A stretch of 15,928 bases of DNA from positions 1-15,928 of IMG/VR virus record IMGVR_UViG_3300045988_076720; one strand, written 5' to 3'. The translations under genes were made by a program, and so were the position numbers. Positions 7,257-13,971 of the stretch are shown here, piece after piece. The stretch is from a virus (Duplodnaviria; Heunggongvirae; Uroviricota; Caudoviricetes). The first letter of the stretch is position 1; each line of letters opens with the position of its first letter. Below the pieces are notes generated by a model. That model ran no database searches and was not told the DNA's origin. It worked only from the letters and a program-made list of their open reading frames with translations.

Positions 7257-7859
7257 ATGGAACAGGCTATTTTGGGAAAAGACGGTTACGCTTTAAATGA
7301 TGGGGAAATCATCGTACATAACTATGATGGCGAAACGCGGGAATATATTTCTACATCAACTGAATATCTTGCGGTTGGCGTCGGTATCCCGGCATGTTCC
7401 TGTCTGGATGCACCAGGTACACATAAAGCTGGTTATGCAATCTGTCGCTCTGTAGATTTAAATTCATGGGAATATGTGCCAGACCATCGCGGTGAAGTTG
7501 TCTATAGTACCGAAACGGGAGATACCAAAGAAATCACAGTTCCGGGTGATTACCCTGAAAATACAACCACTATCGCCCCATTAACGCCATACGATGAATG
7601 GGATGGTGAGAAATGGGTGACGGATACCGAGGCACAGCATAGCGCCGCAGTAGGCGCGGCAGAAGCACAGCGTCAGTCACTGATTGATACTGCAATGGCT
7701 TCCATTAGTCTGATTCAACTGAAATTACAGGCCGGGCGGAAGCTGATGCAGACAGAAAACACCCGACTTAACGCTGTGCTGAATTACATTGACGCGGTGA
7801 CGGCAACAGATACCAGCACCGCGCCGGATGTCATCTGGCCTGAACTGCCGGAGGAGTAG
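7257..7859 (+). CDS. G: tail fiber assembly protein (chaperone), paired with the currently expressed fiber C-terminus
   Basis: 200-aa ORF immediately after the H stop (TAAATG); C-terminal motif ...DTSTAPDVIWPELPEE shared with the convergent alternative assembly gene. Confidence 0.85.
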   Translation: MEQAILGKDGYALNDGEIIVHNYDGETREYISTSTEYLAVGVGIPACSCLDAPGTHKAGYAICRSVDLNSWEYVPDHRGEVVYSTETGDTKEITVPGDYPENTTTIAPLTPYDEWDGEKWVTDTEAQHSAAVGAAEAQRQSLIDTAMASISLIQLKLQAGRKLMQTENTRLNAVLNYIDAVTATDTSTAPDVIWPELPEE

Positions 7860-8274
7860 GCCATTCAATATCTGGCGCACTGGAAGTATCGACCAGCTCC
7901 AGTGCGTCCAGATAATCCAGCCACAAATTATATTGCGCCAGTTCCTCACCTTTCAGACGACCAATAGCCGCTTTACCAACCCATTGTCTACTGTTCATAT
8001 AATCGTTGGCCTGATTAATCAATTGCTGCTTTTTAGTTTCGGCTGATGCAATTTGTTCTTCACGTGTTGGTGGAGGAATATCTGCCCATGCAGGCAGTCC
8101 ATCTTCTCCAACACATCTGTATTTTCCTTCTGGTGGTGTGTCATAGAAATATTCCCTGAAAATTACTTCGTCTATATCAACACCTTTTTCTTCAGGCCAT
8201 TCACCTTTTTCAACATAAAGAGACTGAAGTTCGTAAGGATATGCCAGGTTGTTTACGTACAGATATTTCATCAT
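7831..8274 (-). CDS. alternative tail fiber assembly protein (G'/U'-like), silent partner inside the invertible segment
   Basis: 147-aa - strand [32 protein letters not shown]... with C-terminus ...LVDTSSAPDIEWPTPPAVQAR homologous to the gpG C-terminus; start overlaps the stop of the upstream - strand fiber cassette (TAATG); 3' end overlaps G convergently by 29 bp. Confidence 0.82.
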   Translation of the reverse strand: MMKYLYVNNLAYPYELQSLYVEKGEWPEEKGVDIDEVIFREYFYDTPPEGKYRCVGEDGLPAWADIPPPTREEQIASAETKKQQLINQANDYMNSRQWVGKAAIGRLKGEELAQYNLWLDYLDALELVDTSSAPDIEWPTPPAVQAR

Positions 8275-8648
8275 TACCAGCCCTTAGCGAAAAACGCACC
8301 ACCTTCAAGACCATAATTGCAGTGAGCTATGAAGCCGGTAGTGCTCCAGTTGGTCGCCCCCCACATATTCCCGCCCCCGAAACCACCATCGCACACAATT
8401 ACAATGCCCGGTGTCTGTGTAAATGGAATCGGGAATGAAACATTGGCGGATACAGGCCCGTGTTCACCAGGAAAACTAATTCGTCCCCACTGTTCAATTG
8501 AACCATCTGGCATTTTTCGCCAGCCTGAACCTGATGCATATGATGACATATCAGGTATCTGATTTTCCCCTGTTCCCACATTCCGTTTTGCCGCTTCTCC
8601 CAAACCAACGTTTATGAAAATGCAGAGATAACGGGCAACTGGCATCAT
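8274..8648 (-). CDS. alternative tail-fiber C-terminal cassette (Hv'/Sv'-like); functional part is 8274-8606, expressed only as an H fusion after inversion
   Basis: - strand ORF whose segment after the crossover ([35 protein letters not shown]...) is Gly-rich fiber-tip-like; it contains the same GLGE codons (ggt ttg gga gaa) as H at the crossover, in frame. The ATG at 8648 lies outside the segment and is probably not a real start. Confidence 0.7.
8595..8620. repeat. hix/gix-like 26-bp inversion crossover site, right (inverted relative to 6748-6773)
   Basis: TTCTCCCAAACC-AA-CGTTTATGAAAA; its reverse complement shares the 15-bp block TTGGTTTGGGAGAAG with the H site; lies ~55 bp upstream of the invertase start. 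Confidence 0.7.
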
Positions 8649-8675
8649 CTCCGGTTTTTATTCAGGGGGATGCTC

Positions 8676-9269
8676 ATGCTTATTGGCTATGTACGCGTGT
8701 CAACAAATGACCAGAACACGGAATTGCAGCGTAATGCGCTGGAGTGTGCAGGATGTGAGCTGATTTTTGAGGATAAAATCAGCGGCACGAAGTCTGACCG
8801 ACCGGGACTGAAAAAACTGCTCAGAACATTATCAGCAGGTGACACTCTGGTAGTCTGGAAGCTGGACAGGCTGGGGCGTAGTATGCGGCATCTGGTCATT
8901 CTGGTTGAGGAACTGCGCGAACGCGGCGTTAATTTTCGCAGCCTGACAGATGCTATTGATACCAGCACGCCGATGGGGCGTTTTTTCTTTCATGTGATGG
9001 GTGCCCTGGCTGAAATGGAACGAGAACTCATTGTCGAGCGGACACGCGCCGGACTGGAAGCGGCCAGAGCTAAAGGTCGTATTGGTGGCAGACGTCCGAA
9101 GCTCACCGCGAGTGAGTGGGAACAGGCAGGACGGTTGCTGGCTGCGGGTGAATCACGTCAACGCGTGGCGCTGATTTTTGATATTGGCCTGTCCACGCTC
9201 TATAAAAAATTCCCCTCATCAGCGACAAAGAATAAATTGTGTCATCCCTTAGCCAACCGGGACAAATAG
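8676..9269 (+). CDS. serine DNA invertase (Gin/Hin/Cin/Pin family site-specific recombinase)
   Basis: N-terminus MLIGYVRVSTNDQNTELQRNAL... with catalytic-Ser motif, VVWKLDRLGRS, GRFFFHVMGALAEMERELIVERT and a C-terminal HTH (GRIGGRRPKLT...LSTLYKK) are hallmark invertase sequences. ORF track starts at 8670 (MLMLIGY...); the ATG at 8676 has better spacing from the GGGGG Shine-Dalgarno-like run. Confidence 0.93.
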   Translation: MLIGYVRVSTNDQNTELQRNALECAGCELIFEDKISGTKSDRPGLKKLLRTLSAGDTLVVWKLDRLGRSMRHLVILVEELRERGVNFRSLTDAIDTSTPMGRFFFHVMGALAEMERELIVERTRAGLEAARAKGRIGGRRPKLTASEWEQAGRLLAAGESRQRVALIFDIGLSTLYKKFPSSATKNKLCHPLANRDK

Positions 9270-9328
9270 CCTGACATCTCCGGCACAACTGAAAATATCA
9301 CTCACCCATTAACCACGGAGTTAAACGG

Positions 9329-10519
9329 ATGAGTGACTATCATCACGGCGTGCAGGTGCTGGAGATTAACGACGGCACCCGCGTCATTTCCACCGTATCC
9401 ACTGCCATTGTCGGCATGGTCTGCACGGCCAGCGATGCGGATGCGGAAACCTTCCCCCTCAATAAACCGGTGCTGATTACCAATGTGCAGAGCGCAATTG
9501 CAAAGGCCGGTAAAAAAGGCACGCTGGCGGCATCGTTGCAGGCTATCGCTGACCAGTCAAAACCGGTCACCGTTGTTGTGCGTGTGGAAGACGGCACCGG
9601 CGACGACGAGGAAACGAAACTTGCGCAGACCGTTTCCAATATCATCGGCACCACCGACGAAAACGGTCAGTACACCGGACTGAAAGCCCTGCTGGCGGCA
9701 GAGTCGGTAACCGGTGTTAAACCGCGTATTCTCGGTGTGCCGGGACTGGACACCAAAGAGGTGGCTGTTGCACTGGCATCCGTCTGTCAGAAGCTGCGCG
9801 CTTTCGGGTATATCAGCGCATGGGGCTGTAAAACCATTTCCGAGGTGAAAGCCTACCGCCAGAATTTCAGCCAGCGTGAGCTTATGGTCATCTGGCCGGA
9901 TTTCCTCGCATGGGATACGGTCGCCAGTACCACCGCCACCGCGTATGCCTCCGCCCGTGCGCTGGGTCTGCGCGCTAAAATCGACCAGGAGCAGGGCTGG
10001 CATAAAACGCTGTCCAACGTCGGGGTGAACGGTGTTACCGGCATCAGCGCGTCCGTATTCTGGGATTTGCAGGAGTCCGGCACCGATGCTGACCTGCTTA
10101 ACGAGTCAGGCGTCACAACGCTGATTCGCCGTGACGGTTTCCGCTTCTGGGGTAACCGTACCTGCTCTGATGACCCGCTGTTCCTCTTTGAAAACTACAC
10201 CCGCACCGCGCAGGTGCTGGCCGACACGATGGCTGAGGCGCACATGTGGGCGGTGGACAAGCCCATCACCGCAACGCTGATTCGCGACATCGTTGACGGC
10301 ATCAATGCCAAATTCCGTGAGTTGAAAACAAACGGCTATATCGTGGATGCGACCTGCTGGTTCAGCGAAGAATCCAACGATGCGGAAACCCTCAAGGCCG
10401 GAAAACTGTATATCGACTACGACTATACACCGGTACCTCCTCTTGAAAACCTGACCCTGCGCCAGCGTATTACCGATAAATACCTGGCAAATCTGGTCAC
10501 CTCGGTTAACAGCAATTAA
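9329..10519 (+). CDS. FI: contractile tail sheath protein
   Basis: 396-aa ORF MSDYHHGVQVLEINDGTRVISTVSTAIVGMV... matching P2 FI in sequence and length. Confidence 0.92.
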   Translation: MSDYHHGVQVLEINDGTRVISTVSTAIVGMVCTASDADAETFPLNKPVLITNVQSAIAKAGKKGTLAASLQAIADQSKPVTVVVRVEDGTGDDEETKLAQTVSNIIGTTDENGQYTGLKALLAAESVTGVKPRILGVPGLDTKEVAVALASVCQKLRAFGYISAWGCKTISEVKAYRQNFSQRELMVIWPDFLAWDTVASTTATAYASARALGLRAKIDQEQGWHKTLSNVGVNGVTGISASVFWDLQESGTDADLLNESGVTTLIRRDGFRFWGNRTCSDDPLFLFENYTRTAQVLADTMAEAHMWAVDKPITATLIRDIVDGINAKFRELKTNGYIVDATCWFSEESNDAETLKAGKLYIDYDYTPVPPLENLTLRQRITDKYLANLVTSVNSN

Positions 10520-10531
10520 GGAGCCTGACCG

Positions 10532-11047
10532 ATGGCAATGCCGCGCAAACTCAAGTTAATGAACGTCTTTCTGAACGGCTACAGCTATCAGGGCGTCGCG
10601 AAGTCCGTCACGCTACCAAAACTGACCCGTAAGCTCGAAAACTATCGCGGTGCGGGGATGAACGGCAGCGCACCGGTAGACCTCGGCCTTGATGACGATG
10701 CGCTGTCAATGGAGTGGTCGCTCGGTGGCTTCCCGGATTCGGTTATCTGGGAGCTTTACGCCGCAACCGGTGTGGATGCCGTACCGATTCGTTTTGCAGG
10801 TTCTTACCAGCGCGACGATACCGGCGAAACGGTGGCCGTCGAGGTGGTCATGCGTGGACGTCAGAAAGAAATCGACACCGGCGAGGGCAAACAGGGAGAA
10901 GACACCGAGTCGAAAATCTCCGTGGTCTGCACCTATTTCCGGCTGACGATGGACGGTAAGGAGCTGGTCGAAATCGACATCAACATGATTGAGAAGGTGA
11001 ACGGCGTCGACCGGCTGGAGCAACACCGCCGCAATATCGGCCTGTGA
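10532..11047 (+). CDS. FII: tail tube protein
   Basis: 171-aa ORF MAMPRKLKLMNVFLNGYSYQGVAKSVTLPKL... matching P2 FII; GGAG RBS upstream. Confidence 0.92.
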   Translation: MAMPRKLKLMNVFLNGYSYQGVAKSVTLPKLTRKLENYRGAGMNGSAPVDLGLDDDALSMEWSLGGFPDSVIWELYAATGVDAVPIRFAGSYQRDDTGETVAVEVVMRGRQKEIDTGEGKQGEDTESKISVVCTYFRLTMDGKELVEIDINMIEKVNGVDRLEQHRRNIGL

Positions 11048-11054
11048 TTTTCAT

Positions 11055-11075
11055 CCGGTCAGCCTGGCTGACCGG
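11055..11075 (+). other. perfect palindrome / predicted RNA hairpin in the FII-E intergenic region
   Basis: CCGGTCAGC-CTG-GCTGACCGG: 9-bp perfect stem with 3-nt loop, seen directly in sequence; followed by TTAACCCC, so no U-tract. Confidence 0.5.
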
Positions 11076-11103
11076 TTAACCCCGATTCAGAAGTGAGAAA
11101 ACC

Positions 11104-11379
11104 ATGAACAAAGAAAACGTCATTACCCTGGACAATCCGGTCAAACGTGGTGAGCAGGTTATCGAACAGGTCACGCTGATGAAACCCAATGCCGGGACGC
11201 TGCGCGGTGTCAGTCTGGCTGCGGTCGCAAACTCCGAAGTCGATGCACTGATTAAAGTGCTGCCGCGCATGACGGCACCGATGCTGACCGAGCAGGAGGT
11301 CGCCGCGCTGGAACTGCCTGACCTTGTGGCGCTGGCCGGTAAGGTGGTCGGTTTTTTGTCGCCGAACTCGGTGCAGTGA
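11104..11379 (+). CDS. E: tail assembly chaperone E
   Basis: 91-aa ORF MNKENVITLDNPVKRGEQVIEQVTLMKPNAG... matching P2 gpE; slippery heptamer near its 3' end. Confidence 0.9.
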   Translation: MNKENVITLDNPVKRGEQVIEQVTLMKPNAGTLRGVSLAAVANSEVDALIKVLPRMTAPMLTEQEVAALELPDLVALAGKVVGFLSPNSVQ

Positions 11380-11531
11380 CGTTTCCGAAAAATCTGTCGG
11401 TCGATGACCTGATGGCGGATGTGGCAGTGATATTTCACTGGCCGCCATCAGAACTGTATCCCATGAGCCTGACCGAACTCATCACATGGCGCGAAAAGGC
11501 GCTCCGGCGAAGCGGAAACACGAATGAGTAA
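11104..11531 (+). CDS. E+E': tail assembly chaperone E+E' produced by programmed -1 ribosomal frameshift at 11352-11358
   Basis: Slippery heptamer T-TTT-TTG in the E frame; the -1 frame is open from 11358 to TAA at 11529-11531 (checked codon by codon), giving 85 + 57 = 142 aa; overlaps the T start, as in P2. Confidence 0.8.
11352..11358 (+). other. -1 programmed frameshift slippery site (TTTTTTG)
   Basis: X-XXY-YYZ heptamer in the zero frame of E (codons TTT TTG at 11353-11358). Confidence 0.8.
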
Positions 11532-12252
11532 CAATGTAAAATTACAGGTATTGCTCAGGGCTGTTGACCAGGCATCCCGTCCGTTTAAATCCATCCGCAC
11601 AGCGAGCAAATCGCTGTCGGGGGATATCCGGGAAACACAAAAATCACTGCGCGAGCTGAACGGTCAGGCATCCCGTATTGAGGGATTTCGCAAGACCAGT
11701 GCACAGCTCGCCGTGACTGGTCATGCACTTGAAAAGGCACGGCAGGAGGCCGAAGCCCTTGCCACACAGTTTAAAAACACCGAACGTCCGACCCGTGCTC
11801 AGGCGAAAGTGCTGGAATCCGCAAAGCGTGCGGCGGAGGACTTACAGGCGAAATATAACCGCCTGACGGATTCCGTTAAACGCCAGCAGCGGGAACTGGC
11901 CGCTGTGGGAATTAATACCCGCAATCTTGCACATGATGAGCAGGGACTGAAAAACCGTATCAGTGAAACCACTGCACAGCTTAACCGTCAGCGTGACGCG
12001 CTGGCGCGTGTCAGTGCGCAACAGGCAAAACTTAACGCAGTAAAACAGCGTTATCAGGCAGGCAAGGAACTGGCCGGAAATATGGCCTCAGTGGGCGCTG
12101 CCGGTGTGGGGATTGCGGCGGCGGGAACGATGGCCGGAGTTAAGTTGCTGATGCCCGGTTATGAGTTTGCGCAGAAAAACTCAGAATTGCAGGCTGTGCT
12201 CGGAGTGGCAAAAGACTCCGCCGAAATGACCGCACTACGCAAACAGGCGTGA
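11524..12252 (+). CDS. T: tail tape measure protein T, N-terminal portion ending at an in-frame TGA
   Basis: 242-aa ORF MSNNVKLQVLLRAVDQASRPFKSIRTAS..., coiled-coil-like and Ala/Gln/Arg-rich; same frame as the 12370-13971 ORF. Confidence 0.85.
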   Translation: MSNNVKLQVLLRAVDQASRPFKSIRTASKSLSGDIRETQKSLRELNGQASRIEGFRKTSAQLAVTGHALEKARQEAEALATQFKNTERPTRAQAKVLESAKRAAEDLQAKYNRLTDSVKRQQRELAAVGINTRNLAHDEQGLKNRISETTAQLNRQRDALARVSAQQAKLNAVKQRYQAGKELAGNMASVGAAGVGIAAAGTMAGVKLLMPGYEFAQKNSELQAVLGVAKDSAEMTALRKQA

Positions 12253-12369
12253 CAGCTCGGGGCCAATACCGCCGCTTCGGCGGATGATGCGGCCGGTGCA
12301 CAGATAATCATCGCGAAAGCGGGTGGGGATGTTGATGCCATTCAGGCGGCAACGCCGGTCACGCTGAAT

Positions 12370-13971
12370 ATGGCGCTGGCGAACCGCCGCACGATGGAAG
12401 AAAACGCCGCCCTGCTGATGGGGATGAAATCCGCCTTTCAGCTTTCAAACGATAAGGTCGCTCATATCGGGGATGTTCTCTCCATGACGATGAACAAAAC
12501 CGCCGCCGATTTTGACGGCATGAGCGATGCCTTGACCTATGCCGCACCTGTGGCAAAAAATGCCGGTGTCAGCATTGAAGAAACCGCCGCAATGGTCGGG
12601 GCGCTGCATGATGCAAAAATCACAGGCTCAATGGCGGGGACGGGAAGCCGTGCCGTGTTAAGCCGCCTGCAGGCACCGACGGGAAAAGCATGGGATGCAC
12701 TCAAAGAGCTTGGAGTGAAAACCTCAGACAGCAAGGGAAACACCCGGCCAATATTTACCATTCTGAAAGAAATGCAGGCCAGTTTTGAGAAAAACCGGCT
12801 CGGTACTGCCCAGCAGGCTGAATACATGAAAACCATTTTCGGGGAGGAGGCCAGCTCAGCCGCCGCTGTGCTGATGACTGCCGCCTCAACCGGAAAGCTG
12901 GACAAACTGACCGCTGCGTTTAAAGCCTCAGACGGGAAGACCGCAGAGCTGGTAAATATCATGCAGGACAACCTCGGTGGTGACTTTAAGGAGTTTCAGT
13001 CCGCTTATGAGGCGGTGGGGACTGACCTGTTTGACCAGCAGGAAGGCGCACTGCGTAATCTCACGCAGACGGCCACAAAGTATGTGTTAAAACTCGACGG
13101 CTGGATCCAGAAAAACAAATCACTGGCGTCAACCATCGGCATCATTGTCGGTGGTGCACTGGCACTGACTGGTGTCATCGGTGCCATTGGCCTCGTAGCC
13201 TGGCCGGTTATCACCGGCATTAATGCCATCATCGCGGCAGCAGGCGCAATGGGTGCAATCTTCACGACGGTTGGCAGTGCTGTTATAACCGCCATCGGGG
13301 CGATTAGCTGGCCGGTTGTGGCCGTGGTGGCCGCCATTGTCGCCGGGGCGTTGCTTATCCGTAAATACTGGGAGCCTGTCAGCGCATTCTTTGGCGGTGT
13401 GGTGGAAGGGCTGAAAGCGGCATTTGCGCCGGTGGGGGAACTGTTCACGCCACTTAAACCGGTGTTTGACTGGCTGGGTGAAAAGTTACAGGCCGCGTGG
13501 CAGTGGTTTAAAAACCTGATTGCCCCGGTCAAAGCCACCCAGGACACCCTGAACCGTTGCCGTGACACGGGGGTCATGTTCGGGCAGGCACTGGCTGACG
13601 CGCTGATGCTGCCGCTTAATGCGTTCAACAAACTGCGCAGTGGTATTGACTGGGTACTGGAAAAACTCGGTGTTATCAACAAAGAGTCAGACACACTTGA
13701 CCAGACCGCCGCAAGGACTCATGCCGCCACGTATGGCACCGGTGGTTATATTCCGGCGACCAGCTCTTATGCAGGCTATCAGGCTTATCAGCCGGTTACG
13801 GCACCGGCTGGCCGCTCTTATGTGGACCAGAGTAAAAACGAATATCACATCAGTCTGACGGGCGGTACTGCGCCGGGGACTCAGCTCGACCGCCAGTTAC
13901 AGGATGCGCTCGAAAAATACGAGCGGGATAAACGTGCGCGCGCCCGTGCCAGCATGATGCATGACGGTTAA
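12370..13971 (+). CDS. T: tail tape measure protein T, C-terminal portion (first ATG after the internal stop; frame is open from 12253)
   Basis: 533-aa ORF with Gly/Ala-rich hydrophobic repeats (IGIIVGGALALTGVIGAIGLVAWPVITGINAIIAAAGAMGAI...) typical of tape measure proteins; same frame as 11524-12252. Confidence 0.85.
   Translation: MALANRRTMEENAALLMGMKSAFQLSNDKVAHIGDVLSMTMNKTAADFDGMSDALTYAAPVAKNAGVSIEETAAMVGALHDAKITGSMAGTGSRAVLSRLQAPTGKAWDALKELGVKTSDSKGNTRPIFTILKEMQASFEKNRLGTAQQAEYMKTIFGEEASSAAAVLMTAASTGKLDKLTAAFKASDGKTAELVNIMQDNLGGDFKEFQSAYEAVGTDLFDQQEGALRNLTQTATKYVLKLDGWIQKNKSLASTIGIIVGGALALTGVIGAIGLVAWPVITGINAIIAAAGAMGAIFTTVGSAVITAIGAISWPVVAVVAAIVAGALLIRKYWEPVSAFFGGVVEGLKAAFAPVGELFTPLKPVFDWLGEKLQAAWQWFKNLIAPVKATQDTLNRCRDTGVMFGQALADALMLPLNAFNKLRSGIDWVLEKLGVINKESDTLDQTAARTHAATYGTGGYIPATSSYAGYQAYQPVTAPAGRSYVDQSKNEYHISLTGGTAPGTQLDRQLQDALEKYERDKRARARASMMHDG

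Follow-up and report, generated by a model that had tools for sequence, protein, structure and literature searches.

Between the tail tube gene (FII) and the tail assembly chaperone gene (E) of a P2-like phage lies a short spacer carrying a perfect palindrome, and the question this locus raises is what such an element does on the transcript of a late tail operon. In the window (the whole stretch of 15,928 nucleotides of viral DNA analysed here), the palindrome CCGGTCAGC-CTG-GCTGACCGG occupies positions 11055-11075. The reading that we favour, with a confidence somewhat above even, is that it would act as a leaky intrinsic terminator combined with a 3'-end-protecting hairpin in the pF late operon, favouring FI and FII over E, E', T, U and D.

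Peduovirus (P2-type) phages share 98-99% identity with the region, and of 5426 complete E. coli genomes 1596 hold a P2-like prophage that matches it, none exactly and the best at 98.6%. The genes flanking the spacer had been assigned to tail tube and chaperone in the initial annotation, an assignment with which the Pfam matches agree, and the features that frame the hairpin are these:

9236 to 9305, + strand: pF-type late promoter region, from the right part of the Ogr-activator site to the transcription start (~9303-9305), recognised by homology only.
9329 to 10519, + strand: FI, tail sheath (Pfam Phage_sheath_1, Phage_sheath_1C and Gp18_domIII_N), an abundant product whose gene precedes the hairpin.
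10532 to 11047, + strand: FII, tail tube (Pfam Phage_tube PF04985, E 1e-57), 99% identical to Peduovirus FII and likewise an abundant product.
11104 to 11379, + strand: E, tail assembly chaperone (Pfam Phage_TAC_7 PF10109, E 3e-12), the first gene past the hairpin.
Up to 11531, + strand: E', reached by -1 frameshift from E (Phage_P2_GpE match at 11376-11531; the frameshift is annotated in the P2 record).

Downstream of the hairpin lie E', T, U, D and ogr. Positions 9236-9340 are near-identical to the P2 region with the annotated activator binding site and F-operon start, and pF is, as predicted from sequence, the promoter driving an FI-FII-E-E'-T-U-D transcript that contains the hairpin about 1.75 kb from its start, where the only intergenic gap of any size occurs. 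E, E', T, U and D appear to be without a promoter of their own and to depend on pF.

Some peculiarities of the surrounding genes deserve mention in their own right. FII has 171 codons here and 172 in all close relatives (516 versus 519 nt), with an in-frame 3-nt difference between 10950 and ~10980. The tape-measure gene T (11524-13971) has the length of its P2 counterpart (2448 nt) and an in-frame TGA at 12250-12252 (…CAG GCG TGA CAG…), and is split in the list of open reading frames into pieces of 242 and 533 amino acids; the prophage may be defective, or the stop in T may be read through. A serine invertase gene (8670-9269; Resolvase and HTH_7) adjoins oppositely oriented tail-fibre-assembly genes (7257-7859 on the + strand, 7831-8274 on the - strand), with a further - strand open reading frame beside it (8274-8648), and 7257-9269 looks like a Gin/Cin-type invertible tail-fibre segment, in place of which reference P2 has fun(Z) upstream of pF. 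The invertase stop falls almost upon the pF promoter (9200-9260), where the left part of the Ogr-activator region differs from reference P2 and the right part is conserved, and pF activation here might differ from that in P2.

The spacer itself (11048-11103, 56 nt in its entirety) can be divided as follows:

11055 to 11063, + strand: 5' hairpin arm, CCGGTCAGC, whose bases form core pairs in the alignment to the covariance model.
11064 to 11066, + strand: hairpin loop, CTG, which among relatives differs in sequence and in length (3-10 nt).
11067 to 11075, + strand: 3' arm of the hairpin, GCTGACCGG, whose A at 11071 is a G in reference P2 and 186, giving a U.G pair.
11076 to 11083, + strand: weak tail, TTAACCCC, two U and then C-rich, the likely release region if the element is a leaky terminator.
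11084 to 11103, + strand: conserved spacer, GATTCAGAAGTGAGAAAACC, with the E ribosome-binding site, outside the hairpin.

As DNA, the element is a perfect 10+1+10 palindrome (repeat finder on the window), and as RNA it folds into a hairpin with a 9-bp stem and a 3-nt loop (RNAfold), at -16.5 kcal/mol in a 48-nt context and -15.8 kcal/mol alone; a 71-nt context of the spacer folds at -19.6 kcal/mol (z = -2.36), and 4 of 200 shuffles fold equally well. The stem begins 7 nt past the FII stop codon TGA (11045-11047) and ends 28 nt before the start codon ATG of E (11104). The initial annotation, which had described a perfect 21-bp palindrome forming a GC-rich 9-bp stem-loop just past the FII stop and had proposed a folding-energy calculation as a check, is thus borne out by both sequence and fold, the calculation having returned a hairpin of about -16 kcal/mol. 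The perfection of the palindrome is a sub-clade variant, the 3' arm in reference P2 (NC_001895) being GCTGGCCGG, with U.G instead of U-A.

Might such a palindrome be a product of chance, or a neutral relic devoid of function? A dinucleotide shuffle of the window contains on average 0.45 perfect 9-bp hairpins whose loop has 3-8 nt; the window itself has three, the two others lying inside genes (2772-2792 in gene R and 8759-8783 in the invertase gene, the latter AT-rich), and the palindrome by itself is only mildly unusual and weak evidence. The expected number within a 56-nt spacer, by arithmetic from the same figure, is ~0.0016, and the motif CCGGYCAG-N3-12-CTGRCCGG has one match in the window and none in 200 shuffles. 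Chance is nevertheless not the explanation, because the element is conserved at the same position across relatives: hundreds of diverged phages have a hairpin there, an invariant stem stands beside diverged flanks, and different stems take its place elsewhere, all of which leaves a functionless palindrome scarcely credible.

One relative with a label at this site is phage 186, in whose record (NC_001317.1) positions 15906-15932, between I (the equivalent of FII) and H (the equivalent of E), are annotated as "terminator; tI; partial terminator of pJ transcript". The 186 tI sequence is CCGGTCAGC-ACT-GCTGGCCGG, with a stem equal to that of reference P2, and the window stem is identical to it at 17 of 18 bases. 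Site and strand are the same, as is the setting in a late tail operon under an Ogr/B-activated promoter, and the tails are alike (TTATTACCCCC in 186 tI, TTAACCCC in the window), whereas the loop is ACT in one and CTG in the other, stem position 5 pairs as U.G in 186 and as U-A in the window, and 186 tI can add three outer pairs to form a 12-bp stem against the 9 bp of the window. A covariance model of the P2/186 clade gives one strong match each in the window (38.7 bits, E 2e-11), the P2 segment (41.0 bits) and the whole 186 genome (45.9 bits), and between P2 and 186 the stem is invariant and the loop and the bases on both sides have diverged. By position, sequence and structure, the window hairpin is the orthologue of 186 tI. 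A dispersed (REP-like) repeat was considered and rejected, given the single match in the window and one strong model match per genome; Rfam, searched over the whole window at gathering score, returned no matches.

The P2 RefSeq record, otherwise annotated in detail, marks nothing at the hairpin site and treats FI to D as one operon ending past ogr, and a Mannheimia P2-like phage record has a terminator predicted by TransTermHP in the same spacer. A full-text literature search, whose reach excluded the primary papers on the 186 and P2 late regions, returned no paper on the FII-E hairpin or on 186 tI; a preprint on P2D1 tailocin expression measured sheath, tube and fibre genes only.

The conservation of the palindrome among P2-like phages, which had been put forward as a check, proved strong. 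A hairpin with 6-12 pairs and a loop of 3-10 nt lies 3-10 nt past the tube stop in 76 of the 83 sequences compared, a set made up of the window, 186, a Klebsiella phage and 80 tube loci of 62-99% FII identity drawn from a collection of species-representative genomes. The covariance model finds the element in three of the seven others (L071, L073 and L078), all three with a disrupted tube reading frame. On a wider scale, a hairpin of 6 bp or more, within 50 nt, is present in 208 of the 225 distinct 60-nt stretches that follow tube genes, and three viral-contig scans contributed clades of P2/186 type, Fels-2 type and Burkholderia type. A control at random positions within the tube gene discriminated poorly, with hairpins of at least 7 bp in 41% against 88%. 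Tube relatives without a downstream hairpin are found in Yersinia and related prophages (L061, L081, L083, L084 and L146), a Halomonas phage (L093) and Zymomonas pZM36 (L097), and some of these have a very short or AT-rich spacer; all are natural "deletion" cases, which could reveal what takes the place of the element. As an aside, assemblies labelled Chryseobacterium sp. (L009) and Vagococcus sp. (L071/L078) carry enterobacterial P2-type tube genes (81-94% identity), and these Bacteroidota and Firmicutes labels probably reflect contamination or mislabelling.

Beyond the P2/186 clade, it is the structure rather than the sequence that persists. Just past the tube gene, Fels-2-like phages have the stem GGCGCGG/CCGCGCC, Burkholderia phages GCCCGCG/CGCGGGC or GCCCGGCCGG/CCGGCCGGGC, and phiCTX-like phages CCGCCGGCC/GGCCGGCGG, while Ralstonia, Stenotrophomonas and Micavirus phages have versions of their own. 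The distance from stop codon to hairpin is 3-10 nt in the P2/186 clade, 11 nt in Fels-2-like phages and 5-20 nt in Burkholderia phages. Across Peduoviridae clades whose stem sequences differ, the structure is preserved.

Whether what is preserved is an RNA structure or a double-stranded DNA site can be judged from the pairs themselves. The latter would be bound by a protein dimer, for instance a regulator or an enzyme of restriction or methylation, and the initial annotation had named a protein-binding site as one alternative; the two-fold symmetry is perfect in the window, CCGG sites and a Dcm CCTGG are present, and CCWGG is central in the closest relatives. Against this, the symmetry of the DNA is broken in about half of the relatives, reference P2 and 186 among them, by a T.G at stem position 5 (32 of 68 by pair count, 41 of 88 in the model alignment), and these imperfect palindromes still pair through G.U on the + strand only. 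The covariance-model alignment has U.G at this position in 41 sequences, C-G in 39 and U-A in 7, and an outer pair swaps between A-U and C-G. Hairpins with at least one G.U pair number 106 when read as the + strand and 16 as the - strand, and the + strand is stabler by more than 2 kcal/mol in 73 cases, the - strand in 8. This G.U excess on the mRNA-sense strand argues for an RNA structure rather than a DNA-binding site. Moreover, the centre of the palindrome varies in sequence and in length (3-10 nt), the stems of other clades are unrelated, and there is one copy per genome, with no second, operator-like copy. A Dcm or restriction site in particular was rejected, the centre being unconserved beyond the closest relatives. 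Protein binding to DNA is accordingly disfavoured, highly improbable in our estimate and, like chance, effectively excluded.

Pair statistics speak for the stem, within limits. With the covariance-model alignment, pairing holds in 81.9% of cells but in at most 43% once the 3' side is shifted by 1-3 columns, and the covariation score is 0.197 versus 0.135 in shuffles, with none of 500 shuffles as high and a similar result from a MAFFT alignment, although such shuffle statistics overstate independence, the sequences being related and the core of the P2/186 clade mostly conserved rather than covarying. RNAalifold on a plain MAFFT alignment, in which several long-loop rows were misaligned, recovered three pairs only, and that run was replaced by explicit pair counts and the covariance-model alignment.

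If the element acts as RNA, the next question is whether it stops RNA polymerase. Its stem (9 bp, 7 of them G-C, with a loop of 3 nt) falls within the range of the GC stem of intrinsic terminators (5-14 bp, loop 3-8 nt). Its tail, TTAACCCC, has 2 T in 8 nt, where a U-tract would have at least 5 T in 8 nt, and a consensus terminator scan of the window did not call the hairpin site; tail and scan together uphold the earlier remark that the palindrome lacks a U-tract and is no classic intrinsic terminator. Canonical terminators of the same phages (that after ogr in P2; tB, tW and t95b in 186) resemble the window hairpin in having a GC-rich stem with a short loop, in sense orientation, directly past a stop codon, but have 5-7 T after the stem, where the window has TT and then AACCCC. 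A d'Aubenton-Carafa-type score, of which the ranking alone is trustworthy and whose window value is borderline, is 3.9 for the window, 2.0 for P2 and 0.1-12.3 for 186 tI, compared with 10.7-37.2 for the full terminators tW, tB, tLys and P2 t_ogr, the annotated 186 t95b being an outlier at -1.3. The T-score is 2.65 for the window and 3.35-5.06 for tW, tB, t95b, tLys and P2 t_ogr. Tails of relatives contain little G (7%) and much C+T (70%), and in most of them only 2-3 of the first 8 nt are T; true T-runs follow the stem in a minority, and two U straight after it are common in the P2/186 clade. The hairpin is hence not classed as a canonical intrinsic terminator and probably works like a weak one. 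It must be leaky if it is a terminator, because essential genes lie downstream in the operon, and annotation pipelines miss it because the U-tract is consistently absent.

The terminator scan did produce matches elsewhere, at 11331-11358 (a hairpin and TTTTTTG), which coincide with the slippery site G GTT TTT TG of the E/E' -1 frameshift; a terminator at 11331-11353 was dismissed as a false positive, since it overlaps the E/E' frameshift region. A stem just before the slippery run of E/E' is unusual.

We propose that the GC-rich hairpin would form on the pF late transcript directly past the tube gene, and that a strong stem joined to a very weak U-tail (UUAACCCC) would cause some of the RNA polymerases to be released after FII. 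Transcripts so terminated would end in a hairpin shielding the FI-FII mRNA from 3'-exonucleases, the other polymerases would read on into E, E', T, U and D, and the predicted outcome is a level of sheath and tube mRNA above that of the chaperone, tape-measure and tail-tip mRNA. Each tail calls for sheath and tube subunits by the hundred, and for few copies of the chaperone, tape-measure and tail-tip proteins. A leaky terminator is suggested because the combination of a strong hairpin and a poor release signal agrees with the "partial" of the 186 record, and because E, T, U and D are essential and, going by the P2 record, apparently dependent on pF. That termination occurs, how efficient it would be and what it would do to stoichiometry we infer from homology and sequence features. 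The idea that the palindrome is a partial attenuator or a 3' stability element, keeping sheath and tube transcripts above the E-T-U-D message, had already been voiced in the initial annotation, and gains support from the conservation and from the 186 tI label.

The two halves of that idea are separable, and the hairpin might serve mRNA stability or processing without any stop of the polymerase, exonucleases stalling at it so that FI-FII outlives E-T-U-D once an endonuclease has cut downstream or the full transcript undergoes 3'-to-5' decay. The stem, at about -16 kcal/mol, is strong enough to suit this purpose, and the element is a stable sense-RNA hairpin 3' of the more abundant cistron; the sense-strand bias and the conservation speak for it just as they do for a terminator, and the near-general lack of a U-tract across clades, with C/T-rich and G-poor tails, fits about as well. 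Even a Northern band ending at the hairpin would be identical under both mechanisms, so that the label in 186 could reflect stability. What tilts the balance is that the 186 curators write terminator here while marking other sites in the same record as "predicted" or "expected", and that some relatives have clear T-runs after the stem, with two U common in the P2/186 clade; stability without termination is, in our estimate, rather unlikely. Two other fates of the RNA were set aside. RNase III needs an RNA duplex of some two helical turns (roughly 20 bp), and the stem is too short at 9 bp here and at most 12-14 bp in relatives; a Rho-dependent site in the C-rich tail is made unlikely by an untranslated spacer of only 56 nt, which is our inference.

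Proximity to the FII stop codon brings translation into play. The hairpin, 7 nt past that stop, is probably within reach of the terminating ribosome, and it could accordingly control translation of E, through access to the ribosome-binding site or through FII-E coupling; the spacer up to the E start is, besides, conserved. Yet the stem ends 28 nt before the ATG, the Shine-Dalgarno sequence is unpaired in the centroid fold (in which 11084-11103 is unpaired, save that its final CCA forms the 3' strand of a weak outer helix of 3 bp), no alternative pairing between an arm and the ribosome-binding site was seen, and the distance from hairpin to start varies widely in length and sequence among relatives, all of which makes such control very unlikely. 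The spacer holds ATTCAGA and GAGAAAA blocks, between hairpin and E start, common to the window, P2 and 186, the rest of it diverging, and these conserved blocks may be more than a Shine-Dalgarno sequence; CTGAA-type motifs occur in the spacer of many other relatives.

A related possibility, which we rate as improbable, is an attenuator that senses translation, in place of a terminator of fixed efficiency. The 5' arm would be covered by a ribosome that terminates at the stop codon of FII, so that read-through would occur only where a ribosome closely trails the polymerase and lagging FII translation might lead to termination. If it were true, the dosage of the minor tail genes would be tied to the rate of tube synthesis.

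The leaky terminator with a protective hairpin, if correctly read, would allow one late promoter to supply hundreds of sheath and tube subunits together with few chaperone, tape-measure and tail-tip proteins, and knowledge of it would be of use in annotating P2-like prophages and in engineering P2-type tailocins. The gain in biology is small, the orthologous site in 186 having been annotated before: the element is known in that sister phage and is ordinary, and the present analysis adds, modestly, that it is conserved family-wide, biased to the sense strand and consistently devoid of a U-tract.

The logic has precedents in both of the functions proposed. Intra-operon partial terminators after abundant structural genes include T-phi of T7, after capsid gene 10, and the f1/M13 terminator after coat gene VIII, where likewise a hairpin past a high-copy structural gene lowers transcription of low-copy genes downstream; those elements differ from the window hairpin in having unrelated sequences, different polymerases (T7 RNAP for T-phi) and clear U-tracts. 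Intercistronic hairpins that stabilise mRNA are exemplified by the REP element in malE-malF and by the Rhodobacter puf operon, and these resemble the window hairpin in being stable, 3' of the more highly expressed cistron and without a U-tract, whereas REP elements are dispersed repeats and the window hairpin occurs once per genome.
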